A DNA stretch of 64,000 bases, from contig CAVYES010000007.1 in NCBI GenBank assembly GCA_963767735.1, positions 256,001-320,000 on the forward strand, read 5' to 3'. Source of the stretch: Candidatus Bathyarchaeota archaeon (GTDB lineage: Archaea > Thermoproteota > Bathyarchaeia > Bathyarchaeales > Bathycorpusculaceae). A program made the translations under genes and the position numbers. Below, piece by piece: positions 2,143 to 51,256 of the stretch (position 1 is the stretch's first letter; each line of letters begins with the position of its first letter). Under the pieces are notes generated by a model. That model did not search any database and was not told the origin of the DNA. It saw nothing but the letters and a program-made list of their open reading frames with translations.

Positions 2143-2143
2143 A

Positions 2144-10528: not shown

Positions 10529-10859
10529 AAAATCCCTACTTAATCACTGATTGCATAGAGGTTAAAGTTTTTGGTATTTTTGTCCCAAAGGATACTGGCA
10601 GCTATTCTTTGGCTGTTTCGGTTTTTGTTTCCTCGTTTTTGTCTTTGAGTTTTGCGTGTGGGTATTTTTGCGGCAACTTTCGTTGAAGCTTGCTTTTTAA
10701 TTCTCCGAGCCTTAATCAATCTGTCTAAAGCAAACATAAAGACGCTTAAGCGGTCCTTACAGTAATTAAAAATTTTTAAGAGGATATGCAGTTAATCTAA
10801 TTCTCGCCGTTAACCTTAACTTGGGACATGCCATATTTTAGATAGCCAAAGGAGAGGTT

Positions 10860-12236: not shown

Positions 12237-12263
12237 GGAATGGACTTTTTTGGTGAAAATATA

Positions 12264-12953: not shown

Positions 12954-13003
12954 GTCTAATCAAGGTTTTCGGGTGTGCTTGATCAGAAAGGTTTTGACTA
13001 TGC

Positions 13004-14776: not shown

Positions 14777-14972
14777 AAAACCGAACTCCCGTAATGAGGA
14801 AGTGCCGTTTTCACACATAATTAGTTTCCGCTCAAACAATAACACGACTCATCGACCCCAAGAGAAGTGACCTCTTTGGTCGTCATCATTTTAGAGGTAA
14901 AATCTTTAGCTTTTAACGACCCAGCAAATTATCAGACTTGTAGTGTTATTGAATCGGAAATTTAAGTGCTAA

Positions 14973-16169
14973 CTATTCGACGCTGCAGACCTGGGCTGGT
15001 GAAGCAAGCTTCTTTAAGTCATCGGCGCCGTCAGCGTATCCTGAAGCAACCAATACGTCACCTGCTTGGATTTTTGAGTCTGCTCGAGGACGCAAACATC
15101 CCTCGCCTCTTTTAATCACTAAAACCCACATGCCGGTTTCTTCATGCACGCGAGCTTCTTTAAGAGTCTTGTTTACAAGCGGAGAATCCGCAGTAACACA
15201 AGCTTGGGCAACTGTTTCCTCTGCTTCTTTAATTGTTAGCTTCAAAATTGGGTGCGGTTCAATACCTCTTAGAACAACCTCAGCTATATCCGCAGCTGCA
15301 TCAGCGATTTTTTCTGTTGCTACACCTAACCGAATTAAACCTAGAAACCCGGAGGCTTCTTCTTTTTTGAAATCGCTGGTTAAAGCAAGCAATTCGAAAT
15401 CGGTGTGCATTTGGTCCATGCGTTCTTCAAGGTGCTCGACTTCTTCGGCTAGTTCCTTACTGTTTAACAGAAGCGAAGAATAAGCCAAATCCAACATTAA
15501 CTCGGATGTGTCCTTGAGCTCTACGAACCTTGAAACAATTTCCTCGAATTTTGCGCGTTCTTCAACGCCTAATTTTGCAAGTTCGCCTTCAGCTAAATCT
15601 TTAAATTTTTCAATGCCTAACGATGTACCACGAGTAATTAGGATGTCGCCTTGCAAAACTCTTTCTGTGCCCTCTGGGTCGAGTATCCAATCTTTATTTC
15701 GTCGGATAGCAATAATATCAACGCCCATTTTCGCAGCCAAATCCAATTCATCTATACTTTTGTTGAGAATCGTTGAATTGGCTTTTACGGTCACTTTCAT
15801 TAAGCGTTCTTCTACTTTTTCAAAGATTTCGCCAACTATAGGGTGAATGCCAATGTTACGGGTAACTATCGCTGCTATGTCGGCAGCAGCATCTGAAATT
15901 TTATCGGTGGAAGAAGCTACTTTGGAGATACCAACCAATGCCTCTGCATCTTTAGGATCTCTTGAAACAACCATTAATTCCATATTTAAAAGGTACGCCA
16001 ACGTATCTACTCGGCTTTCAAGCGCAAGAACGTCTTCAGCAAGGTCTTTGTCATTATACAAAGCTGCAGAATAGGCTAAGTCAATCATTAGTTCAGATAG
16101 ATTTTTCATTTCGAGTAAAAGCTCTCTGACGGGGATAGGTTTGTATTCTATCCTTTCAAACTTAGGCAT
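14973..16169 (-). CDS. Duplicated PhoU + TrkA-C (RCK_C) domain protein
   Basis: Two tandem copies of SELMxDLAYS...KIxDAAADIA followed by RCK_C (IIAIRR / VLVIKRG...GDVL). Confidence 0.85.
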   Translation of the reverse strand: MPKFERIEYKPIPVRELLLEMKNLSELMIDLAYSAALYNDKDLAEDVLALESRVDTLAYLLNMELMVVSRDPKDAEALVGISKVASSTDKISDAAADIAAIVTRNIGIHPIVGEIFEKVEERLMKVTVKANSTILNKSIDELDLAAKMGVDIIAIRRNKDWILDPEGTERVLQGDILITRGTSLGIEKFKDLAEGELAKLGVEERAKFEEIVSRFVELKDTSELMLDLAYSSLLLNSKELAEEVEHLEERMDQMHTDFELLALTSDFKKEEASGFLGLIRLGVATEKIADAAADIAEVVLRGIEPHPILKLTIKEAEETVAQACVTADSPLVNKTLKEARVHEETGMWVLVIKRGEGCLRPRADSKIQAGDVLVASGYADGADDLKKLASPAQVCSVE

Positions 16170-16228
16170 ATACTATAGGTCGCTCCATAATAAAATATGG
16201 CTGTGAATTATTTAAAAATACTCTCAAG

Positions 16229-17455
16229 CTACCTGATTAGAAGTAAAGCTAACAGTAAAGCTGATGAGGTCACTATGGTTGCTAATGACGTTTCAAGTGG
16301 GATAACAAAATTATCAGGATTCAAGCCTCTTTTGAATGTTAATATCGCGATACCGAAAGATAAAAGCACTATACCTGTGACGCCAATTATGTTAGATAAC
16401 CAAATTATTATCATAAAATTAAGCACGCTTGATAGTGGAAATACACGGTTAATTGCTAGAGATATTAGGGCTAAAACGGTGGATATTAAAAGTGAGGCTG
16501 TCCATGCGCTGGTTATGTTTTTGGTATGGTTTTTTATCGAAGAGAAAGAGGGCTTGAGTAAACCTAAAGCGAGCTTAGTATTAGCGGTGGAGCCTACAAC
16601 TGAGCCGACATTACTTACCATGTTAATTAAGGCTGGATAAATAGTGTAAATTTCTTTCTGGTTTTTTGCAGCATTACTTATTCCTTTAAAAACGGTTCCC
16701 GTTAGGGTTAGAATTACGGATACAAACATTAGCATAATGAGGGATTCCTTTATGGTTCTCAGGAATTCGGGTTCCTGCTTGTCTTGCAATACCAGATATA
16801 GAACGAGAAACACGTGTGTAAGACCGATAGCTAGAATCACTAATTTGCCGAAAAATGGCAAAAAGAAAAACAAGTTTAACACCCCGATATAACAGAGGGT
16901 TATGAAAATGATGGCTGCCGTAGAAATTATTGGATAAACTACGATGTCAGGGTCTAATCCTCGTTTGAAAGAAACGAAAGCAACCTTGATCGTTATTAAA
17001 GAAAAAAGCAGACCTATCGCTAATGTTGAAACCAAGACTGCTACTATAGCTGGGAAATCAGCCACAGTAATGCCCAAGAGCAAGTAACCGAAAAGAAAAG
17101 AAATTAAGCTAACCGTAAGGCTTGTTACTAAAGTTAATACAATTACGGCATGAATTAGTTTATGGAAGCTATTTGTATTTCCAGAAAAACGAGGGTGAAT
17201 CGTGCCAAGACGCAAGGCCGTGCTTAAGCGGCCACTAAGTAAACCGTTAATTATTCTTAAACTTATCAGCGCTGGATAAAGAGCAAAGGCCCAAGGTGAG
17301 AGCCTGAAAACATTAAGTTGGTAAGCAATAAGAAAACCGGCAATTAATCCAGCTATGTCAAATGAGTAAGCTAACGCTGTCTCCTTGAACATTCCCCAGA
17401 AATTTCCATAAAGGCTGTCATTTGAAATTCTGGTTGACCTCCTAAAGTTCGTCAA
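16229..17455 (-). CDS. mgtE: MgtE-family (SLC41-like, membrane-domain-only) divalent cation transporter
   Basis: Two hydrophobic repeats each ending KRGL(D/N)PD...P; typical archaeal pairing with the TrkA-C/PhoU gene. Confidence 0.8.
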   Translation of the reverse strand: MTNFRRSTRISNDSLYGNFWGMFKETALAYSFDIAGLIAGFLIAYQLNVFRLSPWAFALYPALISLRIINGLLSGRLSTALRLGTIHPRFSGNTNSFHKLIHAVIVLTLVTSLTVSLISFLFGYLLLGITVADFPAIVAVLVSTLAIGLLFSLITIKVAFVSFKRGLDPDIVVYPIISTAAIIFITLCYIGVLNLFFFLPFFGKLVILAIGLTHVFLVLYLVLQDKQEPEFLRTIKESLIMLMFVSVILTLTGTVFKGISNAAKNQKEIYTIYPALINMVSNVGSVVGSTANTKLALGLLKPSFSSIKNHTKNITSAWTASLLISTVLALISLAINRVFPLSSVLNFMIIIWLSNIIGVTGIVLLSFGIAILTFKRGLNPDNFVIPLETSLATIVTSSALLLALLLIR

Positions 17456-31452: not shown

Positions 31453-31497
31453 GGCCCGATGGGATTTGAACCCATGACTTTCAGCTCAGAAGGCTGA
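31453..31497 (-). repeat. att site: duplicated 3' half of tRNA-Arg(TCT)
   Basis: ggcccgatgggatttgaacccatgactttcagctcagaaggctga is 44/45 identical to 49906-49950. Confidence 0.93.
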
Positions 31498-31519
31498 ATT
31501 TCTCTACAAAATGTCTTAT

Positions 31520-37836: not shown

Positions 37837-38299
37837 AACAAACTTGAAGATTAACATTATTGGTTTGGAACCGTTTTAAAGACGCTAGATTCCTTATTAG
37901 TCAGCATGCTTCTCAAATTAGTGCAATTGGCTTCTCAAAAGAATTCAAAAGCTACTATCCTGACTATACCTGTTTTGGTGAAGCAAGATGTACGCCAACA
38001 ATTCCTCAACTAGGCACACAAGAAAACTGCATAAAACGCAAATAACAATGACCAGTAAAATGCTTCAAGCAGTCATGGAAAACTTGGTCAAGAGCGGAAT
38101 GCGCTACAACAAATTGAAAAACAAAAACAAAAGGTCTCGGCAGTCCTAAGGTAGTTTTTTCACTCTGACTTTTCGGTTTAAACGAACTTTAGAAAAATTA
38201 AATTGAGTTAACTTGATTCAACTTCAATAGTATCATATTCAAAGGCATTACCATAAAGTTACGTTAATCCCAAAGCCCCAAAAGATTTGAAAAAAAGGT

Positions 38300-39196
38300 T
38301 TAATATGTCGCTTCTGACAATATGCGCTTTAAAATTTCGGTGCCGTGCCTAACGCCTAGTTTTTTCTCGCCTAATCTTTCCCGGTATTCAATGGGGACCT
38401 CCGCGATGCCAAAGCCTGCTCGCTCCACATGATGGTTAAGCTCTACCTCGACGTCAAACCCTTTAGACTTCACCTTCCAGTCTCTAAGAATTTCCGCACG
38501 CACAACACGCAACCCAGTCAAAGGATCAACCAACTGCACGCCATTAAGAAAGTTATGAGTAAGCGCGATAAGCCGATTCCCTAAGTAGAAAATGCCATTC
38601 AACCCCTTCAGGTCCATGTAACCGTTAAATCGGTTACCGCAAACCATGCCCACATCCGGATTTTCCTCAAGTACCCGAATCATCCCAGGAACATATTCAG
38701 CAGGATAAGTATAATCTGCATCTGTAATGACCACGTAATCAACCGCTAAATCCAAGTTCTCAACGGCCTTTGCCAAAGCATCACCCTTACCTAACCCATC
38801 TTGGACGACAACGTTGGCACCCATATTCTTGGCCTCCTCGACGGTTCGATCGGTGCTTTTGCCGTCAACAACCAAAATCCGAGGGTTACTCAGAGTGTTC
38901 TTTAGCTCGGATATGGTAAGACCGATGCCTTCTTCCTCGTTCAAAGCAGCTATGATGACCTGCGTCGAAGGAATGCAGCGCAAATCGCCGTTTCGCATTT
39001 GTACTGGCGCTATTTTTTCTTCTTCGACTAACACAGTTGTGATGACCTGCGTCGAAGAAATATACTGTGAAGCTCCTTTCTGCACTTGCACCAATACTCC
39101 TGTAGCGGTAACTTGTTGGTTCAAACTCCTATTTAAAAAGTTATGTAAAAAATGGAAATATGCGAATACTTTGAAACTTAATTTTTTATTCCCCAT
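38300..39196 (-). CDS. Glycosyltransferase family 2 (DPM1-like)
   Basis: AALNEEEGI, VDGKSTDRT, DADYTYP, FDVEVE; paralogue of 35820-36539. Confidence 0.9.
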   Translation of the reverse strand: MGNKKLSFKVFAYFHFLHNFLNRSLNQQVTATGVLVQVQKGASQYISSTQVITTVLVEEEKIAPVQMRNGDLRCIPSTQVIIAALNEEEGIGLTISELKNTLSNPRILVVDGKSTDRTVEEAKNMGANVVVQDGLGKGDALAKAVENLDLAVDYVVITDADYTYPAEYVPGMIRVLEENPDVGMVCGNRFNGYMDLKGLNGIFYLGNRLIALTHNFLNGVQLVDPLTGLRVVRAEILRDWKVKSKGFDVEVELNHHVERAGFGIAEVPIEYRERLGEKKLGVRHGTEILKRILSEATY

Positions 39197-39354
39197 CAGT
39201 AACTTACCTAAAATAAATAAAGACTAACATAGTCTTCACTCAGCAAAGCCAGAAACCCTTATTTAAAGCAATAAGGAAAACATGGAAATAATTTCCCTAC
39301 TTCAGCCTTAAATTTTTATCTCGCATCAAAAACCAATCTAACGTAACCAACATA

Positions 39355-39675
39355 CTAGCTCATATCCTCACAAAGCAAAGCCAGCAGCTCCCGCTCACAA
39401 CCCAAAGCCTCAAGCAACTTCTGCGCTCCAACATAACGCTCTTTAAAATGATTGTACTGCTTAAGAAACTCTCGACCTCGCTTAGTCAACTTGTACCTGC
39501 AACCTTCTACACGAACAAAACCAGCGCCCAAAACAACCCCCAAATACTTCTCCAAAAGACCAAAACTCAAATTCGCCCTAGTCTTAATACGAGTTTTACT
39601 CGAACCAGAATTTGCAGCCTCCAAAATAGCCGCAACAATCTCCACGCGATCACGATTCTTACCCAACAAAACCAC
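39355..39675 (-). CDS. Winged-helix transcriptional regulator
   Basis: RDRVEIVAAILE...KTRI...ANLS...YKLTKRG. Confidence 0.8.
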   Translation of the reverse strand: MVLLGKNRDRVEIVAAILEAANSGSSKTRIKTRANLSFGLLEKYLGVVLGAGFVRVEGCRYKLTKRGREFLKQYNHFKERYVGAQKLLEALGCERELLALLCEDMS

Positions 39676-40257
39676 CCACCAACACTCCAGAAATCAAACC
39701 AAAAAAACTAAAGCCTCCAACACCAAAACAAAACTTAAAGACAACACTAACAAGTACCTTCACAACAGAAGAGAATTTGAACCAAGGGATCTCAATAGAC
39801 TTCAAGCTTCCGCTCCTCTTACTCCTAAGAAACAGAATTGAAGCCTTCCATTCTCACGCAATCCTCTTCAACCCTTAAACAAGCACAACCAAAAAAAACC
39901 ATATAAGTCATATTTCCAAAAACGTAATATGCCAAAAACAAAAAGGATTTCAGCTAAACAAAACAGTTTATGGCGAAAACTTTGTTTGCCATAGGGAAAG
40001 TAGCGATTTAAACAGCGGCTTTCGATTTTGCAGAATATTGTAGCTCCATTCCCTATCCCTTTGAGTGACTTACTTCGCTCAGGGACCAAGCATTTTTATT
40101 TTCTCAACCTGCGAAACCTGATGGACTTAACCCTTTTCGGGTCGCAACCTTATGGGATTTGACGCTAAAAGGGGGCAGAACCATATATTAAAATAAGAAA
40201 CTTTTAAGAAAAATCTGGAAAAATAACTCACAGAAACCAATCCTAGCCGGAAGCGAG

Positions 40258-40292
40258 CCGAGCCGTGCTTGAACCCAAACGGGTTCAAGCCG
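40258..40292. repeat. Palindromic repeat, copy 1
   Basis: ccgagccgtgcttgaacccaaacgggttcaagccg; hairpin gcttgaaccc/gggttcaagc. Confidence 0.85.
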
Positions 40293-40335
40293 TAAGTTTA
40301 AAAGCATAGTTGATGTCATGCCTAATCGGTTAACG

Positions 40336-42140
40336 TCACGAGAGCAGTCCATCAAACTCAGACTCGCGACCTAATTGTTCCTTAATAACTTGAAGTTGAG
40401 TTAGCATCATTTTCAGCTCGTTCAGTTTGTTCTTCACTTCAAGCTCGCTTATAGTTCGCAAATGCTCGGCTTCATAAACCGCTTGCTTCACGGTTTCAGT
40501 TGAAGATTCCAATGCTCGGTTAATATCCATTTTCAGCTTCAGAACAGCTTGGTCTATTCGAGTAATAAAATAGTCATACCTTATTCGCCCCCCATTCTTG
40601 TCGAATTCAGTTCTTGCTTTTTCCCGTATCTGCTTTTTCAGAATTCCCCCAAACAACGATTTTGGAAGAAGTTGCGCCATCTCTCCTCCACTAATTGTCA
40701 TACTAGCTGTAAAAATAGGGTCTAGATGATAGTAGAACCTAGTTTCAAAACTTAAGGAAGCATTAAAAACAGCGTCAGTTACTTGAAATCCAAAGAGTTT
40801 AGCTGCCTTCTGCCTGACATCCCCAATTAAGGTATTCATTTTTACGTTAGACTCATTCACTAACTGCTGAAATCGCTTCTCAGCTTTAAAATCTTCATCT
40901 TCAATGAATTCTGAGTAAACTTCGATCAACCTTTTCCTAAGGTAATCTTCCGCATAGCTGACAATTTTTCTAGAACTTATTTTTTCTGATTTGATCTTTT
41001 CTTCGGCAAAATCTTCGATTTGTTTTATCAGCAAATCTTCATGTTCTTTTTTAAAGATAGTTAAGTCACCGTCTAGCATGCTCACTATCTCTCTTACTCT
41101 TCCGTCCAATACATAGAAGAGTTCGCGTTTCTTGTTCTCAATCGAATCAAGATAGCGTTCGAATTCTAACAGAAGACTTGCAAGATTTTCTAAAGGCATT
41201 GTTAAGCTGTTGATTTCAAGTTGGACGTATGTGGTTAAATCTGATGCAGATTTTCCCAACTTATTTATTGCTGAGTTTAGTATCAGGCTTTCTTTCACAT
41301 TTATGAGCGATTCTTTGAGGGCTGTCTCGAAGTTCTTTATCCCGCTGCGCTCTACCAGATTTGGGTCATTGCCAAGTCGACCTTCTAGGGCTAATTTAGC
41401 CGATATTGGATAGATCCTCACTGCAGAGCCATGATTATGGCTGAGATGTTCGCTTATGATTTTTTGGCAATACTTTTCTGACTCATTTAGCGAGGCAGAA
41501 TCTACATAATCGATCTTGTTTAGAACAAATAGAATTTTGTTTGATTTCGATGCCAAATCAGTGAGAAGCTCGATTTCCTGCTGACCTACAGGCGGGTCAA
41601 CAGCAAAAACAAATACTGCAAAGTCAGCCCTGTCGAGGAACTGAAAGGTTATTTGTGTTCCACTAAGGTATGTTGAACCTACTCCTGGTGTATCAATCAG
41701 TATTAATCCATCCTTCAGAATCTGCGAAGGCACAAGAACGTCAGCACTGTCACATTCTATGTGTTGTCAGGGTTTCCTGCTTCAGAGACATATTTAGGTA
41801 GCTCTTGAATTGGCACTTCTTTTTCCGAACCATCGCCAAAACTAATCCTCGCAGTCGGGTCGTTGCCATACCTTATTCTTGTTATCACGGAAGTTACTGG
41901 AATAACGCCTGTCGGAACGATTGTTCTTCCTAGCATGGCGTTTATGAGAGTTGACTTTCCTCTTTTGAAAAGCCCGAGCAAAGCGAGATAAAACTCTTCT
42001 TTCGGCAGCTTATCCAGCACTTCATTCAGAAAATCTGCGATAGCCGTGTTGTTGGTTCTCTGAGCAATTTGTAATAATGTTTGTCCCGCGTTCTCAATTT
42101 CGGATTTAAGATAAGAATACTCTGACGATGAATTCACCAT
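40336..42140 (-). CDS. Bacterial-type dynamin-like GTPase (Dynamin_N), interrupted by one frameshift at about 41757
   Basis: G1 GLFKRGKST, G2 IPVT, G3 DTPG, G4 NKID, ISAK, and a long helical stalk. ATG at 42140 follows GGTGA. Adding one base joins the two ORFs. Confidence 0.85.
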
Positions 42141-42144
42141 TTTC

Positions 42145-42999
42145 TCACCCAATATAAAAAGGCTCAAAAGTGCTGAGTTTTTGAAGTGTTGTGATGGCGT
42201 AGTAGGTGTATTCAAAACTGGATATACCGAGGTCTGAGCGGGCAAAACCTCCGTTTTTGTTTTGGCACTTTAATATCCAATCTATCGTTTGTGTTTGATA
42301 CCTACCTTTTTCGCCAAGCAAATCAAGCGTCATTACGCCATAATAGACGTGTTCCATGTACGGCCCGAAATTTATCGGTGTAACTGTGAAGCCGCCGTAG
42401 GGTTTTTCGCATCCCCTCACGAACCTTACAGTGTCATGCAAATCCTGGAGGCTCTCCTTAAGAAGGCTCATAGAAGCAGTGGCGTAATAGGTTGAGTTAA
42501 TGTTTGATTCTCCCTGTGTTCCAAAACCTCCGTCATCATTTTTGAAATGAAGCAGCCACTCCGCCACTTCTTTCGTGTTAACTTTAATTTTCAGCAAATC
42601 AGCAAGCTCGAGTGCCATGAAGGTTGTCAAAAACTCTGAAGGGACTTCGGCGAAAACTTCTGTAGAGCTAAAGTACCTTTTTGAGTTTAGAATTGAAAGA
42701 GCGTGTTTTTTCTGTTTTGCGTCAACGTTTTTGCCAATTAACAGTGAAGTTTTGCTTAGGTAATAAATTGAGTATATGTTGTCTAAATGAATGACGTTTA
42801 TGAATTTTACAGTTTTTTCAATGTTAGGGAAATTTGTATTTAGTGCACTTAGAATATTTAATCCATAATATGTGTCTTGACCGTTTGACTCTGCGCCCTG
42901 GCAAAAAGTGTAACCACCGTCTTCGTTTTGACGATCAATTACGTAATTTGCTATCTTTTTGGTCCATGATGGGTCGGCTAGCTGCTTTACTTCAACCAA
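42145..42999 (-). CDS. Prenyltransferase/squalene-oxidase repeat protein (COG1689-like)
   Basis: Repeats RQNEDGGY, NDDGGFG, EKPYGGF, CQNKNGGFAR, each followed by TYYA/TYYG. Confidence 0.85.
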   Translation of the reverse strand: MVEVKQLADPSWTKKIANYVIDRQNEDGGYTFCQGAESNGQDTYYGLNILSALNTNFPNIEKTVKFINVIHLDNIYSIYYLSKTSLLIGKNVDAKQKKHALSILNSKRYFSSTEVFAEVPSEFLTTFMALELADLLKIKVNTKEVAEWLLHFKNDDGGFGTQGESNINSTYYATASMSLLKESLQDLHDTVRFVRGCEKPYGGFTVTPINFGPYMEHVYYGVMTLDLLGEKGRYQTQTIDWILKCQNKNGGFARSDLGISSFEYTYYAITTLQKLSTFEPFYIG

Positions 43000-43023
43000 T
43001 GGATTATCACTCTGATTTTAGTT

Positions 43024-43085
43024 GGTAGAAGCTATCAGTCTCTGCCTGTAAAGCAAAGGCGGTTGAAGGCGAGCCTCATCGCCAT
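43024..43085 (-). ncRNA. Fluoride riboswitch (crcB motif)
   Basis: Minus strand GGCGATGAGGCTCGCCTTCAACCGCC...GACTGATAGCTTCTAC: P1 GGCGA/TCGCC, loop GAGGC able to pseudoknot with GCTTC, conserved AAC and CTGAT...CTAC. It lies 25 nt upstream of the TTG start. Confidence 0.88.
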
Positions 43086-43109
43086 GTATTCTTGGAAAAG
43101 GTCTAACCC

Positions 43110-43124
43110 AATAAATAAGCTTTC
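43110..43124 (-). promoter_or_regulatory. Archaeal BRE/TATA promoter of the riboswitch operon
   Basis: GAAAGC-TTATTTAT about 25 nt upstream of the riboswitch 5' end. Confidence 0.55.
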
Positions 43125-43453
43125 TTCTTTAACAAAGGTGAAGGCGTAACAAACATCGCGCCTGTACAAAGTTTCCACAGTTAATGTAAAACAGGTTTGG
43201 CAGTTTCTTGGCAAGAGGAACTGCGCGTTGTTGGACTACAGTCGTCTTTCCCGAATGATTTCCTCGAACTACAGCGACAAACCGCGTCAAGTAAATTCTT
43301 TCTACGAAAAAAAGTAAGCGAATTTATTTATAAACACCCGCAGGACTCCCTTATAAGAAATATAAGCGAGGCTCTGTCAGACGGGTTAGTGACAGTAAGG
43401 CAAAGAAAGGTGTGTTTGGAAGTAGTCGATTTCAAAAAAGGGAAAATTAAAAC

Positions 43454-44710
43454 ATGAGCAGAGAAACAAAAGATACCCTGAAAAAAGAAAAGTGGCTAAA
43501 TAGGAATGTCGCCGCAATAGGACTTACAAGCTTACTTAGCGATTCGAGTCACGAGATGGTTACGGCCATTCTCCCATTTTTCCTTCTTGCAATAGGCGCT
43601 GGACCAGCAGCATTAGGGTTGATAGAAGGCTTTTCAGACGGCGCTTCAAGTTTTGTGAAGTCGTTTGCAGGATATCTTAGCGACAAAATCGGAAAAAGAA
43701 AACCGATTATGAACCTCGGTTATCTTTCAACAGGCGTTTTTATACCTCTTATTGCAGCAACGACTTCATGGTTTCAAGTTTTGGGCTTGCGGGTTGCTGC
43801 TTGGCTGGGAAGAGGCGCTAGAGGTCCACCCAGAGACGCTTTATTGACAGATTCAACTTCTTCAAAATCCATTGGGAAAGCTTTCGGCTTTGAAAGGGCA
43901 ATGGACACTGTAGGTGCCGTAATAGGGTCAGCTTTGGCGCTTCTCTTTTTGACATTTCTTAGTTATAGACAAATTATAACGGTATCTCTGATACCTGGTC
44001 TGGCAGCATTTTTTGTTGTCTTTTTTGTGGTTCGGGAAGTGCGAAAGAAACCATCTCCACAGGCTCCAATCGTCTCTACTCATGGTGATGTTTTTGTAAG
44101 AGACGACGGCTTTATTCAGTCAGTCAGGACGCTTCCAAGGTCGTTTAAGCTTTTTCTCGTTGGAGTAGGCGTTTTTGGGTTGGGTAATTTTGCTAACAGT
44201 CTTTTAACTTTGCGTGCTCAAGAGGTCTTGGCGCCTAAAGTTGGTTCATTTGAAGCTTCAGTCATTGCTGTTGGCTTATATGTTCTGCTTAACGTTTCCT
44301 ATGCAGCTTTCTCGTTTCCCGTTGGTGCGTGGAGTGATAAAATCGGTAGGAAGAGAATTCTTGCGACAGGTTATTTTATATGCGCTATAGTTTGTTTGGC
44401 TACTGCTTTTCTCACGCCTGACTTTTTGGTGTTGGTTCCATTGTTCTTCGCTGCGGGAGTTTTTACAGCGATAACGGATACTATACAGGGGAGTGCGGCA
44501 GCGGATTTGTTGCCCACAGGGTCGAGGGGAACGGGTTTTGGCGTATTGCAGACAGTTAACGGCATTGGTGACTTTGTATCGAGCACTGTAGTTGGTGGGC
44601 TTTGGGTGCTTATATCACCGCTTGTAGCCTTCTCGTATGCAGCCGTACTTTCAACGGCTGGAGGCATCATCCTCCTTTATCTAACTCGAGGAAATCACCC
44701 GCTGAAATAA
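43454..44710 (+). CDS. MFS transporter
   Basis: GYLSDKIGKRK and WSDKIGRKR motifs, RGPPRDALL, about 12 TMs. Confidence 0.92.
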   Translation: MSRETKDTLKKEKWLNRNVAAIGLTSLLSDSSHEMVTAILPFFLLAIGAGPAALGLIEGFSDGASSFVKSFAGYLSDKIGKRKPIMNLGYLSTGVFIPLIAATTSWFQVLGLRVAAWLGRGARGPPRDALLTDSTSSKSIGKAFGFERAMDTVGAVIGSALALLFLTFLSYRQIITVSLIPGLAAFFVVFFVVREVRKKPSPQAPIVSTHGDVFVRDDGFIQSVRTLPRSFKLFLVGVGVFGLGNFANSLLTLRAQEVLAPKVGSFEASVIAVGLYVLLNVSYAAFSFPVGAWSDKIGRKRILATGYFICAIVCLATAFLTPDFLVLVPLFFAAGVFTAITDTIQGSAAADLLPTGSRGTGFGVLQTVNGIGDFVSSTVVGGLWVLISPLVAFSYAAVLSTAGGIILLYLTRGNHPLK

Positions 44711-44907
44711 ATTGATAGATAAAAATCAAATCACGCGCTTTAAGCTTTGCTTATTGTAATATTTTTGGTGTTGTCTACTGTGATACTCAAAAAGAGAATT
44801 GCCTGAGTCAACGGTTCACTTCTGCGGATTTATGCGTTCGCTTTGCACGTTGACTTCGCATGTGCGTTTCTACGGAGGGAATGTGTACTTTCGACGCATA
44901 GGATGGT

Positions 44908-44941
44908 CCGAGCCGAACTTGAACCAAACGGGTTCAAGCCG
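44908..44941. repeat. Palindromic repeat, copy 2
   Basis: ccgagccgaacttgaaccaaacgggttcaagccg. Confidence 0.85.
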
Positions 44942-45125
44942 CCATCATTTTCTCTTCTGTTAACCTTCTAATTGATTGAAACAAGCGAATTTTAACATTT
45001 TAATAGGTTTTCATAAGCGGGCGCTTTAAGACTTATCATCAATTAAAACTTAACTAAGTTACTTTAAAGTACAAAGCAAAGCATTATTAGTCCCGTATGG
45101 TCGCATGTGGCTTGAGTGGGGATGT

Positions 45126-45302
45126 ATTAAAAGAGCAGAAGCAGTAGCTCTTCTAAAAGAGTTATGTTCAGAACAGTTAATTCAACCATCTTTAGTTCTT
45201 ATTGAACAGAGAAAACCCGATAAATACCAGTTATGCGTTAAAGGCGATTATGACCTTCAACGACTAGGAGTATTTCTTCAAAAAATACACTTTGTCATTT
45301 GA
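45126..45302 (+). CDS. Small hypothetical protein (possible ATT start; possible 3' frameshift)
   Basis: (I)KRAEAVALLKELC...YQLCVKGDYD. Confidence 0.5.
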   Translation: MKRAEAVALLKELCSEQLIQPSLVLIEQRKPDKYQLCVKGDYDLQRLGVFLQKIHFVI

Positions 45303-45344
45303 AGAGGGCACAAAAGGTCTATGTATTTTAAGCTATAGGAAAGA

Positions 45345-45470
45345 CTATTTCGTTAATTTGAAACAGCAATTACAATTCGTGCAGGTATAAGCTTCGACAT
45401 GAAATATACTGTTTTCAAATACTTTGTCTGGCTTAGAAACTTCATTTCCACAGTTAGGACATTTAGCCAA
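45345..45470 (-). CDS. Small zinc-ribbon protein (41 aa)
   Basis: MAKCPNCG...YTCTNC. Confidence 0.6.
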   Translation of the reverse strand: MAKCPNCGNEVSKPDKVFENSIFHVEAYTCTNCNCCFKLTK

Positions 45471-45558
45471 CAAGCGTTGCCATCCAACTTTACCAAGTTG
45501 GCGTGAAATTGTTATAAGCTTTTGTTGGCACAACTTGATTCAACAAACAATCTGAACC

Positions 45559-45738
45559 TTACCTATCGCATTTCTTTTCTTCGTCCATCAGTTGAGCTAG
45601 GGTGTAGGTTATATAGGCTGAGAAGCTGTGAATGCCTTTTTTAATGGCGTATTCCTCTTTGACCTTAAGCCACTCGTTAAAAAAGTAATCGTAAACCTCA
45701 GCTTTTACAGTGATGCTTTTAAAGCCTTTTTTCGGCGT
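45559..45738 (-). CDS. Ribbon-helix-helix-like DNA-binding protein (ACG at the start position)
   Basis: (M)PKKGFKSITVKAEVYDYF...SFSAYITY; AGAGGG SD upstream; not in the ORF track. Confidence 0.6.
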   Translation of the reverse strand, partial: TPKKGFKSITVKAEVYDYFFNEWLKVKEEYAIKKGIHSFSAYITYTLAQLMDEEKKCDR

Positions 45739-45857
45739 TTTGTTTCCCTCTTAAGCTAGTTAGCGGACGTATGTTTATATAAGGTTTCATGCAGTACTGT
45801 TTCACCGTTAATTATATATTTAATTGTACGGTAAAGTACTTTTGGAGATTGGTAGTT

Positions 45858-46004
45858 TTGCCACGTAAAGGATACAAATGCATAACAATTACCGACAAAG
45901 TTCACGCAGAAATCAAAAAAAGAGCCAAAGAAACCAACCGCACATTGAGAGAATATGTAGAAGACTTGTTTGCTAAGGACAAAGTTGATAAAAAAGCGGC
46001 TTAA
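45858..46004 (+). CDS. Ribbon-helix-helix-like DNA-binding protein
   Basis: MPRKGYKCITITDKVHAEIKKRAKETNRTLREYVE; GGAG SD. Confidence 0.65.
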   Translation: MPRKGYKCITITDKVHAEIKKRAKETNRTLREYVEDLFAKDKVDKKAA

Positions 46005-46236
46005 CCACAAATTCTATTATTGCTGAATGAGCTTTTTTTGCTTTTTCTTCATATAGACCATATTCTTAATGTGGATTGATTTTGAGTAAAGTCATCAATG
46101 GACTCAGCAGACTTCTCTCTCAGGTACGAACATTATTAATACTAGTTAGTTAGCTAGCCAATGTATAGTAGTAGTCATCATGGACTTAATTTAACGCTAA
46201 CAAATTGAACTATATCTTTGGATTTTTGCAATAGCA

Positions 46237-49200
46237 TTGGATTCAGAGAGAGAGAAAAAGAATTATCTGAAAGGAGTCTTGCATGTGTCTAAAGTTGAAC
46301 AATCGGTAATTACGGTGGGAATTGGCGCTTCCGCGGGCGGCTTAGAAGCGTTCAAGGTTTTGTTCGAATGTTTGCCTGTTGATACGGGTTTGTCTTTTGT
46401 CGTTATTCAGCATCTGGCGGCTGGTCAGGAAAGCATGCTGACGGACATTCTTTCAAGATTTACTAAAATGCCCGTCCAAGCAGTCAAAGATGGACTGTCG
46501 GTTGTGCCAAACCATGTTTATGTGATTCCGCCTGGAACAATCATGACCATGGAAAATAAGGTCCTCAAACTCAACTCAACGGGTAAGTCTGTGAAACCCA
46601 TAGATGCTTTCTTTGTTTCATTGGCTGAAAACTTGAAAACTCAAAGCTTAGGAATTGTGCTCTCAGGAACGGGGTCTGATGGAACCGAAGGGCTAAAAGC
46701 TATAAAAGCTCAGGGAGGAATCACCTTTGCACAAACTCCAGTCACCGCACAGTACGGTGACATGCCTCAAAGTGCAATTTCAGCGGAAGCTGCAGATTTT
46801 GTTCTGCCTCCAGACAAAATAGCACAAGAACTGCAAAAAATCGCCAATAATCCTCAACTAGCACGAAGCGAAATCGCAGCAAAAGAAGAAACTGGATTAA
46901 AAGAAATAAAGCCAAAAAAGGCAACAGGCCTAAACTCAATATTCACCATGCTAAAATCTGAATGCAATGTTGATTTCTCACACTTCAAAGAAACAGTTGT
47001 AAACAGGCGTGTCACACGCCGGATGGTAATTAACCACATAGAAAAAATGGCCAATTACGCAAACTACCTTCAAACACATCCAGAAGAGCTGGCGGCATTA
47101 TACTCTGACATGCTAATCGGCGTAACAAGCTTCTTCAGAGAACCTGAAACATTTGAAGCACTAAAAGAAACGGTGTTTCCAGCACTAATTAAAAACCGCT
47201 CACCCAAAGAACCTATCAGAGTTTGGATCCCAGGATGCTCAACAGGAGAAGAAGCGTATTCCTTCGCTATAGCAATACAAGAGTACCTCAAAGAAAATGC
47301 CATAACAAACATTCAGGTTCAAATTTTCGGCACTGACGTGAACGAAAAAAACATTGAAAAAGCAAGACATGGAACCTACCCGCCAACCATAGAAACCGAC
47401 GTACTCGAAACGCGATTAAAACATTTCTTCGCAAGCTCTGACGGCAACTATCAAATCACAAAATCTATTCGGGACATGTGTGTTTTCGCCAAGCAGGACA
47501 TAACCGCTGATCCGCCGTTCTCCAATATGGATCTTATCAGTTGCCGCAACATGCTAATTTACTTTGATGAGTACCTTCACGAAAGAGTAGTGCCTACTCT
47601 GCATTATGCATTGAAGACCGGTGGTTTTCTCGTTGTTGGACAATCTGAAAGCATCGGAAAATTCACCCAGTTATTTGAACCTGTAGGCAAGAAGGGTGCG
47701 ATCTACGTAAAAAAGAGGGCGCAGCCTAGCATTACTTTTGGTCTTCAAGCGACGGCGCCTTATCTTAAGCGTAAACAGGGCAGAGAAGGCGAGCATAAAG
47801 ATGCCCTGGTAGTGTTGAAGGACGAGGTTGATCGTTTGTTGGTTACTGAATATGTTCCTGCAGCGTTGCTAGTTAATGCTGATTTGGATGTTCTCATTTT
47901 TCGGGGAAATATTGTACCGTACATTGTGCCTGAATCGGGATTGGCGAGTTTGAATCTGGCAAAGATCATTCGAAAAGAACTAAGGTCTGAAGTGCAGACG
48001 ATAATCTATAGGGCAAGTAAAGAGAACAAACATGTCAAAGAAAATGCCGTGCGCTTTGAATATTCTGGAGAGCAGAAAACAATCAACATCCAAGTTGTTC
48101 CATTGCATGTTGAACAGTATGAAGCACCATTTTTCCTCGTGTTGTTTGAAGACGTTAGTTCAGCGGCAGCGCTTCTACGCCAAACCATGTCGTTAAATAT
48201 GACGGCTGAAGGTCGAGAAAACGTTAAGGACCGTCAAAATAGAGAGCTCAGGGAAGAGTTGGATTCAACTAAGCAAACTTTGCAGAGAATTATTGAAACT
48301 CAGGAAGCAACAAACGAAGAACTCAGAACTACTATGGAGGAGGCGCAGTCGAGCAATGAGGAGCTTCAGAGCACAAATGAGGAATTGGAAACTGCAAAGG
48401 AAGAGCTTCAATCTAGCAATGAAGAATTAAAAACGTTAAATGACGAGGTCAAGAACCGAAACCAAACACTTGCGCTGCTGAATGATGACTTAACTAATTT
48501 GAATAGGAACATTGATCCAGTCGTTGTTATCATCGATAAAAGCCTTAAAATTAGGTTGTTTTCGCCTTCAGCGCGGAAAATTTTGAATCTTTCGCCATCA
48601 ACAGTTGGGCTGCCAATTACAAGTATCAAACTGGGCATAGCAGTTGAAGATTTGGGAGAAATAATTTCAGAAGTGATTTCAAAACTGAGCGGTTTCAATA
48701 AAGAAGTGCAGGATGGGCAGGGTCATTTTTATGAGTTGCGAGTTCGACCTTACATAACACAAGAAGACAAAATAGACGGCGCTGTTTTGTCGTTTGTCGA
48801 TATTGATGACAGAAAGAAGCTTGAAAAAGTTCAACGGTTGGCGGCGATAGGCGAGACAGCTGGCATGGTGGGTCATGATATTCGCAATCCGCTTCAAGCT
48901 ATAATTGGCGATATCTATTTGGCTAGAACAGAATTGGCTTCGACTCTGGAGAGCGAAGAGAAAAAGTGTGCGTTAGAGAGTTTGGAGGAGATCGAAAAGA
49001 ACATTGATTACATTAACAAAATTGTGTCAGACCTTCAAGACTACGCAAAAACGATTAATCCTGTTGCTCAAGAAACAAACTTGGAAGCCTTATGCAAGGA
49101 GCTGCTACAAGGGAAAGATGTTCCGAAAAACATCAAAGCAACGTGTAATGTTGACAGTACAGCTAAAATAATTGTGGTTGACGGTACTTTGTTAAAACGT

Positions 49201-49509
49201 GTTCTTGGAAATCTGGTTTCTAATGCAATTCAAGCTATGCCAAACGGCGGAGAGCTGACTCTTAGGGCACATCAGGAAGCAAGTGACATGGTCATCGCTA
49301 TTCAGGATACAGGCATCGGCATCCCTGATAAAGTCAAGCCGAAGCTTTTCACTCCATTATTCACCACTAAATCGAAAGGGCAAGGCTTAGGATTAGCCGT
49401 AGTCAAGCGTATGGTCGAAGCATTAAACGGAACTGTAACTTTTGAAAGCGTAGAAGGAAATGGCACGACTTTCATTATTCGTTTCCCCCTTAACAAGAGG
49501 CATATCTAA
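46237..49509 (+). CDS. CheB methylesterase / CheR methyltransferase / PAS / histidine kinase fusion
   Basis: GASAGG, LSGTGSDG, TSFFRE, GCSTGEEAYS, SCRN, NEELQS coiled coil, HDIRNPL, DTGIG, GLGL. Confidence 0.93.
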   Translation: MDSEREKKNYLKGVLHVSKVEQSVITVGIGASAGGLEAFKVLFECLPVDTGLSFVVIQHLAAGQESMLTDILSRFTKMPVQAVKDGLSVVPNHVYVIPPGTIMTMENKVLKLNSTGKSVKPIDAFFVSLAENLKTQSLGIVLSGTGSDGTEGLKAIKAQGGITFAQTPVTAQYGDMPQSAISAEAADFVLPPDKIAQELQKIANNPQLARSEIAAKEETGLKEIKPKKATGLNSIFTMLKSECNVDFSHFKETVVNRRVTRRMVINHIEKMANYANYLQTHPEELAALYSDMLIGVTSFFREPETFEALKETVFPALIKNRSPKEPIRVWIPGCSTGEEAYSFAIAIQEYLKENAITNIQVQIFGTDVNEKNIEKARHGTYPPTIETDVLETRLKHFFASSDGNYQITKSIRDMCVFAKQDITADPPFSNMDLISCRNMLIYFDEYLHERVVPTLHYALKTGGFLVVGQSESIGKFTQLFEPVGKKGAIYVKKRAQPSITFGLQATAPYLKRKQGREGEHKDALVVLKDEVDRLLVTEYVPAALLVNADLDVLIFRGNIVPYIVPESGLASLNLAKIIRKELRSEVQTIIYRASKENKHVKENAVRFEYSGEQKTINIQVVPLHVEQYEAPFFLVLFEDVSSAAALLRQTMSLNMTAEGRENVKDRQNRELREELDSTKQTLQRIIETQEATNEELRTTMEEAQSSNEELQSTNEELETAKEELQSSNEELKTLNDEVKNRNQTLALLNDDLTNLNRNIDPVVVIIDKSLKIRLFSPSARKILNLSPSTVGLPITSIKLGIAVEDLGEIISEVISKLSGFNKEVQDGQGHFYELRVRPYITQEDKIDGAVLSFVDIDDRKKLEKVQRLAAIGETAGMVGHDIRNPLQAIIGDIYLARTELASTLESEEKKCALESLEEIEKNIDYINKIVSDLQDYAKTINPVAQETNLEALCKELLQGKDVPKNIKATCNVDSTAKIIVVDGTLLKRVLGNLVSNAIQAMPNGGELTLRAHQEASDMVIAIQDTGIGIPDKVKPKLFTPLFTTKSKGQGLGLAVVKRMVEALNGTVTFESVEGNGTTFIIRFPLNKRHI

Positions 49510-49903: not shown

Positions 49904-49978
49904 CGGGCCCGATGGGATTTGAACCCATGACTTTCAGCTTAGAAGGCTGACGCGCTATCCGTACTGCGCCACGGGCCC
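49904..49978 (-). tRNA. tRNA-Arg (anticodon TCT), intronless, CCA not encoded
   Basis: GGGCCCG/CGGGCCC acceptor stem, TCAGC-CTTCTAA-GCTGA anticodon arm, ATGGG-TTCAAAT-CCCAT T arm. Confidence 0.96.
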
Positions 49979-50053
49979 TCTTGCGGGCACTCTAATGAAA
50001 ACACTTACAAATATAATTTTATCCCTGAGTATCTGCGTTTATTATATAGTGTT

Positions 50054-51256
50054 CTAAATGTAGCTGGAGAATCTTTTCGGTTTTCTGTAACAGTGAACTT
50101 GCAATCCGTTGATAGCGAGCTCATCGTATTTTATCCAGCCTGCCTGACCAAGCTTCATAATTTCCTCAACAGTCGTCGCGGTTGTTGTCTCAAATTGGTC
50201 ATCCTTGAATTCGATCATGCCAATGTATTTCATGCTGTTTTCAATACGCTTATGACCCAATAGCTTCTTTACTAATAACACGTTGCCGTTTGTGTGGTAG
50301 GCAATCATTGTGCCTCCCCAATGTCTGAAGGTCCTTAGTTCTATCTTTAGAATTCGAGGGTTTTGCTGTAGGTTCGCCACTCGCTTTCTCACGTGGTTAT
50401 AGGTGTAGATGATGCTTCGGTAGGTTGTTGGAAAGACTCTTTGCGATACTCTTGGTAAGCAGTTAATCATTGATAGCAGACGACTTGAAACCTTAAGGGT
50501 TCTTGGCAAGTGGCCTTTTACTGGATGGTTGATCTTAATAGTTTGTTCTTTCTCAGAGATGTCTATCCATTCGATTCTTAGGGCTTCTGAGGGGTCGCCG
50601 TAGGTTTCTTTGAGGGTTTGAAGATAGGTTGCTACTCGTCGCGATTTGCAGGCGCTTATCAAGGCATCAAGCTCTGACTCGTCGGGGATAAATGGAATGA
50701 TTTCTTCTTGCCTGTATTTTGGTGGCTTCCAAGTTATCTTCATCATTGTTACGAGGGCATTGTATGCGTAGACGTACTGCAGTTTCATGCCGTCCTTGAC
50801 TTTTTGTCTTCCGATGACTGCTTTAACGTCTTCGGGATCTCGCAGGTTAGCACCAAGCCTTGCGAGACGTCGAATAACGTTTGGGTATTGTGTTTCGTCG
50901 CTGAATCCTTCTTTCTCCAGGTATGCTAGGAACTGAGCAACTAATCCAGCTGCGTCAGGTGGCAGTTTTGCATCTCCCGCACAAACTTTGGTTTTTTGTC
51001 GTGCGGTTTCCAAATTTTTCGCACCTTCGATGATTGCGCCTATTTGGCGTTTAGAATGTAAGGCAATTGGACTATTTAATAACCAGTTTGGGTTTTTTTG
51101 TAACGGCTTCTCAGAAAACCTGTAACCGCAATCACGGCATAGCCATCGCTGAACTGAATTCTCTTTTGAGAGGTAGCGTAATCCGTCCTTGTACAGTCTA
51201 TTCGAACCGCATTGAGGACATAGGACGCTCAAGGAGTCTGGATTTGGCAACTGCAT
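50054..51256 (-). CDS. Tyrosine recombinase/integrase with N-terminal zinc ribbon
   Basis: CPQCGS...QRWLCRDCG; C-terminal TFRHW, LLGHKRIENSMKY; adjacent to a tRNA. Confidence 0.88.
   Translation of the reverse strand: MQLPNPDSLSVLCPQCGSNRLYKDGLRYLSKENSVQRWLCRDCGYRFSEKPLQKNPNWLLNSPIALHSKRQIGAIIEGAKNLETARQKTKVCAGDAKLPPDAAGLVAQFLAYLEKEGFSDETQYPNVIRRLARLGANLRDPEDVKAVIGRQKVKDGMKLQYVYAYNALVTMMKITWKPPKYRQEEIIPFIPDESELDALISACKSRRVATYLQTLKETYGDPSEALRIEWIDISEKEQTIKINHPVKGHLPRTLKVSSRLLSMINCLPRVSQRVFPTTYRSIIYTYNHVRKRVANLQQNPRILKIELRTFRHWGGTMIAYHTNGNVLLVKKLLGHKRIENSMKYIGMIEFKDDQFETTTATTVEEIMKLGQAGWIKYDELAINGLQVHCYRKPKRFSSYI

Follow-up and report, generated by a model that had tools for sequence, protein, structure and literature searches.

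The window analysed here is a stretch of 64,000 nucleotides (nt) from Candidatus Bathyarchaeota archaeon (contig CAVYES010000007.1, positions 256,001 to 320,000 of the forward strand), on contig 7 of a 3.04-Mb assembly of 10 contigs that is 94.9% complete. The locus of interest occupies positions 40336 to 44710. A fluoride riboswitch of the crcB type forms the leader of a gene for a small soluble protein with a toroidal fold (gene 1), which is followed on the same minus strand by the remains of a gene for a dynamin-like GTPase. A transporter gene of the major facilitator superfamily (MFS) diverges from the riboswitch promoter on the plus strand.

An earlier note, made from the sequence alone, had placed the riboswitch at 43024-43085 of the minus strand and had proposed a check with Infernal and the Rfam model RF01734. 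In a scan of the whole window with the Rfam 15 covariance models at gathering thresholds, the element was recovered as the only RF01734 match of the window, at 43019-43092 (minus strand), with 44.2 bits against a gathering score of 34 bits, an E-value of 5.7e-9 and alignment over model positions 1-64 of 64; a whole-genome search found it again. In the alignment helix P1 is intact, P3 has a single C-A mismatch, and the conserved blocks GAUG..G.U and CUGAU.GCU.CUAC are present. Reading of the sequence indicates that the pseudoknot could also form, the loop GAGGCT being complementary to the tail AGCTTC. The aptamer is located in the 5′ leader of gene 1, on the same strand and 19 nt ahead of its TTG codon. 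The upstream TATA element of the note can be seen as a TATA-like octamer at 43111-43118 (minus strand), upstream of the RF01734 match and about 25-30 nt from its 5′ edge; with a purine-rich stretch just upstream, it would make a putative archaeal promoter. A scan limited to bacterial sigma-70 promoters and intrinsic terminators gave nothing useful.

The putative expression platform (42990-43012, minus strand) consists of a Shine-Dalgarno-like GAGTGAT (43006-43012), the TTG start codon (42997-42999) and the segment GGTTGAAG (42990-42997), which takes in the final base of the TTG together with the two codons that follow it in gene 1. Upstream of this TTG, back to the preceding stop, there is no in-frame ATG, GTG or TTG. 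In the minimum free energy fold of 42975-43095 the aptamer is not formed, and its segment CTTCAACC (43061-43068, minus strand) is paired with GGTTGAAG. The two segments are perfect Watson-Crick complements over 8 nt, a match that was equalled 17 times when the downstream 70 nt were shuffled 500 times. Complements of 8-10 nt to the same conserved stretch of the aptamer are found in five other Bathyarchaeia leaders (3-21 of 500 shuffles), and 9 of 26 leaders reach 24 of 500 shuffles or fewer. No run of T was seen after the aptamer in the sequence.

By combining these features, it is possible to describe how the leader might operate. Transcription would start from the TATA-like box, just 5′ of the aptamer. 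When fluoride is absent, CTTCAACC would pair with GGTTGAAG over the TTG of gene 1, and initiation would be blocked. When fluoride is bound, the aptamer would fold and the start region would be released, allowing gene 1 to be translated. The window riboswitch may then be a translational ON switch that acts through release of the start region.

Gene 1 (42145-42999, minus strand) encodes a protein of 284 amino acids (aa) with repeats of the prenyltransferase/squalene-cyclase type (Pfam Prenyltrans, PF00432, E 1.4e-25). Its structure as predicted with AlphaFold2 (pLDDT 89, pTM 0.88) is an alpha/alpha-toroid of 12 main helices. The closest solved folds are those of the RabGGTase beta subunit (TM-score 0.73-0.79, 18-19% identity), followed by the FTase beta subunit and the domains of squalene-hopene cyclase, and a profile search concurs with the prenyltransferase beta fold (E 2.7e-18). 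There are 528 homologues among the sequences found, the named ones belonging to metagenome-assembled genomes (MAGs) of Bathyarchaeia or Bathyarchaeota, and a protein cluster atlas returned generic prenyltransferase-toroid clusters only. The open reading frame (ORF) is intact, about 80% identical to those of relatives, and it keeps all 11 invariant positions of the family alignment. These 11 residues are mostly the structural repeat signature of the fold. Conserved motifs (D-T-Y-Y, S-T-Y-Y, E-H-x-Y-Y and x-T-Y-Y) open the helices 40-52, 167-179, 215-227 and 262-275.

Two enzymatic identities were considered for the toroid protein and rejected. In the beta subunits of protein prenyltransferases the zinc site is formed by Asp, Cys and His (a D-x-C-Y motif and a later His). 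There is no D-x-C motif in the 284 residues of the toroid protein, in which Cys occurs only at positions 33, 197 and 245; the repeat positions of the zinc site carry invariant D-T and x-T, with an ambiguous repeat register. The alpha subunit (PPTA, PF01239) has no match in the genome, at its 94.9% completeness. The fold is thus that of a protein prenyltransferase, but the zinc motif and the alpha subunit were not found. Class II terpene cyclases such as squalene-hopene cyclase are two-domain proteins of about 630 aa with a catalytic DxDD motif. The toroid protein is a single domain that contains no DxDD, and it scores 30.5 bits with TIGR01507, for which the cut-off is 431. The leading guess, made with low confidence, is that the protein might be a binding module or an enzyme for a ligand or partner that bears phosphate or diphosphate and the handling of which is jammed by Mg-fluoride complexes.

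The GTPase gene begins with an ATG at 42140, 4 nt past the TGA of gene 1, in agreement with the two-gene operon that had been proposed. It is represented by two pieces. The N-terminal piece (41757-42140, minus strand, 127 codons) matches positions 2-77 of PF00350 (E 9.4e-15) and ends at the TAG 41757-41759. The C-terminal piece (40336-41763, minus strand, 475 codons) lies in another frame, contains the rest of the G domain (PF00350 positions 93-167) and the helical stalk, and shares 53-70% identity with intact homologues. Both the P-loop GxxxxGKS/T and the DTPG motif can be recognised in the fragments. Alignment of the C-terminal piece with ten intact homologues of 536-612 aa, together with translation in three frames, located the damage. 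The N-terminal piece ends in GNPDNT followed by the TAG, at a site that is mostly K in the listed intact homologues. Past this stop, four codons (N V T V/I) remain in register; one base is then lost within the V/I codon, at 41746-41747, and reading resumes in the other frame as ADVLVPSQILKDGLILIDTPG. The single frameshift originally suspected at 41757 is thus a true break of the gene at that place, made up of two lesions, an in-frame stop and a 1-nt deletion. Logan contigs of two sequencing runs (X2 and X5) span 41647-41941 with no differences, at depth 3-4, and carry both lesions, which are therefore present in short reads and are not an artefact of polishing. No RNA run was listed among those containing the stretch, and contig cover was missing for parts of it, neither of which bears on expression. 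No other Dynamin_N locus was found in a profile search of the assembly. As read from its sequence, the GTPase gene is a pseudogene in this organism.

What the GTPase would look like can be judged from a model of an intact homologue, P0132, which has a G domain and a long helical stalk (helices 270-452 and 496-606). The tip of the stalk is a low-confidence loop rich in aromatic residues (455-490), and no clear transmembrane hairpin was seen in the model. The best matching folds are those of IniA (6j72, E 3e-19) and Nostoc BDLP (2j69), followed by the Campylobacter DLP pair, SynDLP and mitofusins. With low confidence, the family could be described as a fluoride-induced machine for membrane maintenance, or as a spare or decoy for metal-fluoride-sensitive GTP hydrolysis.

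The divergent MFS gene (43454-44710, plus strand) lies where the note had described it. Its ORF is intact, and PF07690 matches along the length of the protein in two stretches (E 8.7e-39); no curated NCBIfam family reaches its cut-off. An ORF of 86 codons (43197-43457, plus strand) overlaps the MFS start by 4 nt, has no Pfam match and shows no similarity (E 8.1) to the 108-aa protein encoded ahead of MFS in relatives. A covariance model built from 43 riboswitch matches (R1) was run over 38000-47000 with filters off and returned only the known match (next best E 0.27); hence no second riboswitch was found ahead of the MFS gene in this interval. The 1.5 kb or so downstream of the MFS gene (44711-46236) contain no ORF of at least 100 codons, and tblastn with the operon genes of relatives was empty there. 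No step in GC content that would indicate a genomic island is seen at the locus across 28-60 kb.

The meaning of this arrangement becomes clearer from related loci. Relatives of gene 1 are found in eleven metagenome loci (nine at 80-82% identity, one at 67% and one at 25%), seven of which have an RF01734 match at the gathering score just upstream; in locus L065 R1 gives a match of 48.6 bits, and the Rfam model gives none at its gathering score. In L060 and L061 the riboswitch is followed by the toroid gene, a DUF6062 gene (PF19538, E 1.9e-31; positions 6849-7580 in L060), a gene for a 108-aa protein, and an MFS gene whose product is 78% identical to that of the window. The same order is continued by a NUDIX gene and the start of a dynamin gene in L059, and by NUDIX and enolase genes in L062. 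The toroid gene is directly followed by the dynamin gene in L063, as in the window, and stands alone in L056 and L057. L067, from a Bathyarchaeota MAG, has three RF01734 matches in 17 kb (1218-17407). The second of them precedes, all on one strand, genes for the toroid, DUF6062 and 108-aa proteins, the MFS transporter, an inorganic pyrophosphatase (E 2.5e-47), a NUDIX protein, an intact dynamin-like protein of 612 aa (7599-9437), and a 160-aa ORF. MFS copies 78-79% identical to that of the window lie downstream of the toroid gene in L059-L062, and the operon includes an MFS gene also in L067 and in the Bathyarchaeia genomes G114 and G128.

Several other properties of L067 may be mentioned. Its two remaining riboswitches lead P-type cation ATPases, one of which is apparently truncated. 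Its MFS gene seems to be frameshifted, the tblastn match being in two pieces. A prediction of a complex between its toroid and dynamin-like proteins gave a score of 0.00 and a mark of 0.32, which is no answer and has no bearing on whether the two bind.

Sensitivity to fluoride is a classic property of pyrophosphatase and enolase, and their presence marks the loci of the relatives as fluoride-stress operons. Compared with these, the window locus is without the DUF6062, 108-aa and NUDIX genes, and its MFS gene is on the opposite strand. A tblastn search of the genome found no homologue of the DUF6062 and 108-aa proteins, and only distant copies of the NUDIX protein. By comparison with the fuller operons, the window therefore probably holds a fluoride-responsive leader that switches on a stress operon, in a rearranged and partly decayed copy of the conserved, longer one.

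One might go further and regard the locus as a decaying relic that has no present role, its operon being on the way out now that crcB suffices. The two lesions in the GTPase gene and the loss of DUF6062, the 108-aa protein and NUDIX from the locus would agree with this, as would the five sampled genomes of the same genus, in which neither a toroid gene nor a dynamin gene was found, nor any MFS match at E 1e-20 or better. Decay to that extent is, however, decidedly unlikely. The aptamer is still well above the cut-off, the toroid ORF is intact and has retained its identity to relatives and its full set of invariant positions, and the MFS ORF is intact as well. The reading as a partly decayed copy, with a leader that would still respond to fluoride, is the one followed below.

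The regulon to which the locus belongs was examined in 151 genomes of the class Bathyarchaeia, with RF01734 at E <= 0.001 and toroid homologues at E <= 1e-10. RF01734 occurs in 27 of these genomes (33 matches in total) and toroid homologues occur in 18. According to the coordinates, the toroid gene has a riboswitch directly upstream in 15 of the 18 genomes, or in 17 of its 20 copies. The three genomes counted as having no upstream riboswitch are G034 and G093, whose fetched loci contain none when searched with filters off, and G097, whose toroid copy borders the end of a contig. Riboswitch and toroid gene are separated by a small NUDIX-like ORF in G114. The first gene behind the 33 matches is that of the toroid operon in 17 cases, crcB in eight, a second MFS family in four and DUF6062 in one, with nothing clear in the remaining three. 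The toroid gene is the core and commonest target of fluoride riboswitches in the sampled Bathyarchaeia.

Other variants of the operon were seen in this sample. In G014, G056 and G106 (L045, L047, L049 and L053) the toroid gene is followed by one for a conserved protein of about 220 aa that has no Pfam or NCBIfam match. In G082 (L036) it is followed by genes for a PAS_10 protein, a low-molecular-weight phosphatase/ArsC-like ORF and a membrane protein.

CrcB was detected in 13 of the 151 genomes, including five of the 18 that bear a toroid gene (G000, G032, G114, G121 and G142). Among the other 13 toroid genomes a CLC match was obtained in G128 only, leaving 12 of 18 in which neither family is seen. 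Nine of these 12 (G082, G014, G056, G106, G002, G010, G028, G115 and G131) are 91-100% complete, and no fluoride-riboswitch unit other than the riboswitch with its toroid gene was detected in them; the toroid gene appears to be alone behind the switch in G115 and G131. The pattern of a toroid gene with neither CrcB nor CLC is consistent over six genera.

It could be imagined that the toroid protein acts in such genomes as a sink or carrier for fluoride or metal fluoride, with an anion site in its central cavity made up of the N-termini of the inner helices, conserved Thr/Ser/Tyr and Arg. Genomes in which a single riboswitch was detected, with this gene alone behind it, and no known exporter was found, such as G115 and G131, would suit this idea, as would the conserved motifs at the four helix starts given above. 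The invariant residues are, however, largely the repeat signature of the fold and not a special site, and a stoichiometric sink would be a weak defence against millimolar fluoride. This function is very unlikely indeed, and the phosphate-related role suggested above is retained as the leading guess.

The earlier note had regarded the locus as free of exporter genes. This is correct for the locus itself, in which a Pfam scan found no crcB or CLC gene, but the genome contains one of each: a single crcB on contig 6 (C6:458095-458421, PF02537, 80.5 bits) and a single CLC gene on contig 4 with an open frame of 609 codons. A match to RF01734 of 24.9 bits, below the cut-off, lies 38 nt upstream of this crcB. 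The crcB leader, whose P1 reads GGCTATGGCATTAGCC, aligns column by column with the crcB leaders of the relatives G142 and G086 (37.6 and 40 bits), and the Rfam cut-off seems to miss this Bathyarchaeia variant. Behind crcB is an ORF of 103 codons that resembles the one behind crcB in G142 and may be a DUF190 gene (region C6:458095-459658). A divergent enolase gene, 92% identical to the enolase of L062, adjoins the crcB leader. Bulk export of fluoride in this genome could fall to crcB and the putative DUF190 on contig 6, under their own riboswitch-like leader. In a genome of the same genus (G127:C32:12166-12489) crcB has five in-frame stops (2 TAG and 3 TAA) behind a riboswitch match of 28.5 bits and is probably a pseudogene.

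The dynamin gene was found in only one of the 151 genomes, that of the window. Its linkage to the riboswitch was therefore sought in collections of metagenome and genome contigs. The dynamin alignment was scanned against one genome per GTDB species, yielding 158 relatives, of which the best 80 loci were kept. R1 gave 126 matches (E <= 0.01) in 65 of the 80 loci. A match on the same strand lies at most 1200 nt upstream of the dynamin match in 54 of the 80, at 30 bits or more in 48 of these; three loci have too little upstream sequence to be judged. Most upstream matches end 410-520 nt before the dynamin match, which corresponds to about 30-140 nt before the start codon, as the query begins at about residue 128. 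R1 had been trained in part on the loci under test, so Rfam's own model at its gathering score was used as a check. It confirmed nine of nine Desulfobacterota-type loci at the same coordinates and gave 17 matches in nine of 11 further loci; it gave no match in any of six Nitrososphaerota loci.

For 95 of the 106 matches of at least 30 bits a first ORF could be identified and scanned with Pfam. Dynamin_N leads with 37 of the 95, followed by MutS_V (7), Na_H_Exchanger (6), HEAT_2 (5), MFS_1, NADHdh and Prenyltrans (3 each), P-type ATPase, small P-II proteins and DUF6062 (2 each), and DUF190 and CRCB (1 each). Known classes of the regulon thus stand beside new ones. The toroid profile shows that a toroid gene adjoins the dynamin gene in eight of the 80 loci, which are from Bathyarchaeota, two Methanospirillum and five Desulfobacteraceae. 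In L123 and L125, from Methanospirillum, riboswitches lead the toroid gene as well as the dynamin gene. In a FastTree phylogeny of 84 rows (from which four of the 80 loci, with an ORF shorter than 480 aa or containing X, were excluded), the window fragment falls into a fully supported clade with the L067 protein and six metagenome proteins, next to the Nitrososphaerota rows. Riboswitch-linked rows are found in Planctomycetota (20 of 21), Thermodesulfobacteriota, Myxococcota-labelled bins, Actinomycetota, Pseudomonadota, Acidobacteriota, Bacillota, Ignavibacteriota and Methanobacteriota. Because many branches of this tree are long, it was used for the closest kin of the window fragment and for the range of phyla, and nothing is concluded about the direction of transfer.

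Some of these loci have features of their own. Six from Alphaproteobacteria and Acidobacteriota bins (L126, L128, L135, L136, L140 and L146) have 5-7 riboswitch-like matches each per 17 kb or so, often in divergent pairs. In appearance they are dense fluoride islands, in which genes of the MutS-like, Na+/H+ exchanger and formate-hydrogenlyase types occur. In five Planctomycetota loci, mostly of Brocadiaceae (L109, L112, L114, L122 and L108), a HEAT-repeat protein of about 275-315 aa is the first behind a further fluoride riboswitch, beside the dynamin gene.

The MFS family was followed in the same manner. Orthologues at least 55% identical to the window protein lie in toroid operons (G114:C10, G128:C14 and G128:C44) or just upstream of crcB (G114:C2). 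In L074 and L090, bacterial homologues of 33-50% identity follow riboswitches at a distance of 39-94 nt, and the four genomes with the riboswitch-led second MFS family have no CrcB match either. Both in relatives and in bacteria, MFS genes thus lie inside riboswitch-led operons or lead them, which lends some weight to the suggestion that the MFS protein may be a new fluoride exporter; the window gene itself is on the other strand, and no riboswitch was detected ahead of it. We know of no MFS protein that is a demonstrated fluoride exporter. The survey of synteny shows that all three families recur behind fluoride riboswitches elsewhere, and by this recurrence the toroid, dynamin-like and MFS families belong to the fluoride regulon.

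A number of points weigh against parts of the reading given so far. The pairing at the start codon is only modestly above chance, as the shuffles show; the corresponding pairing in the leaders of the closest relatives requires G-U pairs or contains a mismatch; and the mode of action of archaeal riboswitches is little known. The two runs that carry the GTPase lesions belong to one study and are possibly the source of the assembly itself. The place of the dynamin gene in the Bathyarchaeia operon rests, given its single occurrence in the class sample, on a few metagenome contigs and one MAG. R1 was trained in part on matches from nine of the 80 dynamin loci, and the Rfam checks cover 27 of them. 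Finally, CrcB or CLC that is not found in a MAG is not thereby proven absent.

What the regulated proteins do is a separate matter. The note had proposed a defence against fluoride that is independent of exporters. At the level of the families an exporter-poor response is plausible, considering the nine nearly complete genomes with a riboswitch-led toroid gene and no CrcB or CLC match, but the proposal does not fit the genome at hand, which has crcB, a dead GTPase and an uncoupled MFS gene. In the detailed form of that proposal the toroid protein alters isoprenoid lipids and the GTPase remodels or repairs membranes, both limiting the entry of HF, and the MFS protein is a new type of exporter. 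The toroid fold is indeed that of enzymes that act on prenyl chains, and the membranes of archaea are isoprenoid-based. The fold of the intact GTPase homologue resembles those of IniA and BDLP, which act on membranes, and the positions of the two MFS families described above, within the operon, directly behind riboswitches in genomes with no detected crcB, and behind bacterial riboswitches, would also be explained. The toroid protein, however, has neither the zinc motif nor DxDD, and no alpha subunit was found. Homologues of the toroid protein are also located behind riboswitch-led dynamin genes in Desulfobacteraceae, a family without isoprenoid ether lipids. Moreover, the toroid and dynamin genes are mostly apart, the toroid gene being present in eight of 80 dynamin loci and the dynamin gene in one of 18 toroid genomes. 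In this detailed form the proposal is unlikely.

Another possibility is that the riboswitches supply spare parts, raising the dose of fluoride-inhibited enzymes or providing tolerant isoforms of them (enolase, pyrophosphatase, NUDIX proteins, P-type ATPases, MutS-type ATPases and the GTPase). Dynamin-type G domains are trapped by GDP-AlF4, according to structural work, and the GTPase would be included on account of this trapping by GDP-metal-fluoride and not for membrane repair. Genes for enolase, pyrophosphatase, NUDIX proteins and P-type ATPases are present in the same operons or behind neighbouring riboswitches, and MutS_V heads seven of the 95 first ORFs. Fluoride is described as an inhibitor of phosphatases and of glycolytic and phosphoryl-transfer enzymes in the available portions of two papers (PMC9971707, PMC12700350). 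This scheme, however, leaves the toroid, DUF6062 and MFS proteins unexplained. Furthermore, the dynamin genes are mostly dedicated copies under riboswitch control (54 of 80) and not extra copies of housekeeping genes, and the genome of the window has no second Dynamin_N locus. As a general account it is rather unlikely.

The wider interpretation put forward here, possible rather than probable, is that of a second tier of fluoride defence that is independent of exporters. It would be built from proteins not previously tied to fluoride. The toroid protein, often together with DUF6062, might act through a mechanism of a new kind to neutralise fluoride or shield a target, and its gene would be the sole fluoride-induced one in some Bathyarchaeia in which neither Fluc nor CLC is seen. 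Dynamin-like GTPases of a dedicated clade, which fluoride would induce in about ten phyla of bacteria and archaea, might link fluoride stress to the maintenance of membranes. The copy in the window is a degraded example, and its value is in the family-level pattern to which it led. Three further families, the prenyltransferase-like toroid, DUF6062 and the IniA/BDLP-like GTPase, follow the same sensor, and a particular group of MFS proteins travels along with them. The link to the GTPase would provide bacterial dynamin-like proteins, whose natural triggers are mostly obscure, with a defined chemical inducer.

Other features of the window lie outside this locus. At 46237-49509 (plus strand) there is a gene for a 1090-aa fusion of CheB methylesterase, CheR methyltransferase, PAS and histidine kinase domains. 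At 49904-51256 a tRNA gene (71.7 bits) lies beside a 400-aa ORF with a weak match to phage integrase (26.4 bits, cut-off 27.1). An integrated element may have its edge here; no sign of an island is seen in the GC profile. A partial tRNA match at 31459-31512 (minus strand; 30.3 bits over model positions 9-63) could come from a tRNA fragment, from a split tRNA or from an unusual one.

The usual defence of microbes against fluoride is described, in the available portions of the literature, as export by Fluc or CLC-F together with extra enolase and pyrophosphatase (PMC7266159, PMC5473149, PMC12700350). The genes associated with the riboswitch include, in the accessible text of Weinberg 2010, mutS and genes for K+/Cl- transport and formate hydrogen lyase (PMC2864571). 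Later reviews, in the parts available, name crcB, eriC, phosphate transporters and a polyphosphate phosphatase (PMC7266159, PMC5473149, PMC9971707), and the accessible part of a paper of 2025 adds Na+/H+ antiporters and metal transporters (PMC12700350). Neither the toroid nor the dynamin-like family is mentioned in these texts. Our search found no paper that ties the toroid or the dynamin-like family to fluoride; the supplements of Weinberg 2010 and Baker 2012, outside this search, contain gene lists that may already name them. Nor did it find any that pairs the fluoride riboswitch with dynamin, COG1689, DUF6062 or Bathyarchaeota, the sole co-mention of a prenyltransferase being unrelated.

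The proteins of the locus can be compared with known ones as follows. The MFS protein shares PF07690 along its length with the drug/metabolite:H+ antiporters of the superfamily, from which it differs in having no NCBIfam assignment and in that its orthologues travel with fluoride-riboswitch operons. The GTPase family shares the dynamin-type G domain (PF00350) with IniA, Nostoc BDLP, Campylobacter DLP1/2, DynA and LeoA. Unlike these proteins, to which it is just 15-18% identical, it is linked to a fluoride riboswitch in about ten phyla, a kind of control for which no earlier description was found. The toroid protein has the alpha/alpha-toroid fold of the RabGGTase and FTase beta subunits and of the squalene-hopene cyclase domains, with four D/N-G-G-aromatic repeats. 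In contrast to these enzymes, it consists of one domain of 284 residues, contains neither D-x-C nor DxDD, and has the low identity given above.

The leader, finally, has the aptamer class and the 5′ position known from RF01734 regulons and, like these, is probably ON with ligand. Classes named for such regulons in the available text (mutS, K+/Cl- transport and formate hydrogen lyase; PMC2864571) occur near the related loci, as do crcB, Na+/H+ exchangers, enolase and pyrophosphatase. Neither Fluc nor CLC-F is the direct target in the window; this is the soluble toroid protein, with the dynamin-like GTPase next in line. The nearest parallel by domain of life is the riboswitch of Thermococcus kodakarensis that responds to fluoride, which is presumed to be translational and is described, in the part of the paper available, as the only natural archaeal riboswitch tested experimentally (PMC8241225). 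Compared by description only, the two differ in what they control, the T. kodakarensis riboswitch being said to control genes for fluoride export, whereas that of the window controls a toroid gene.

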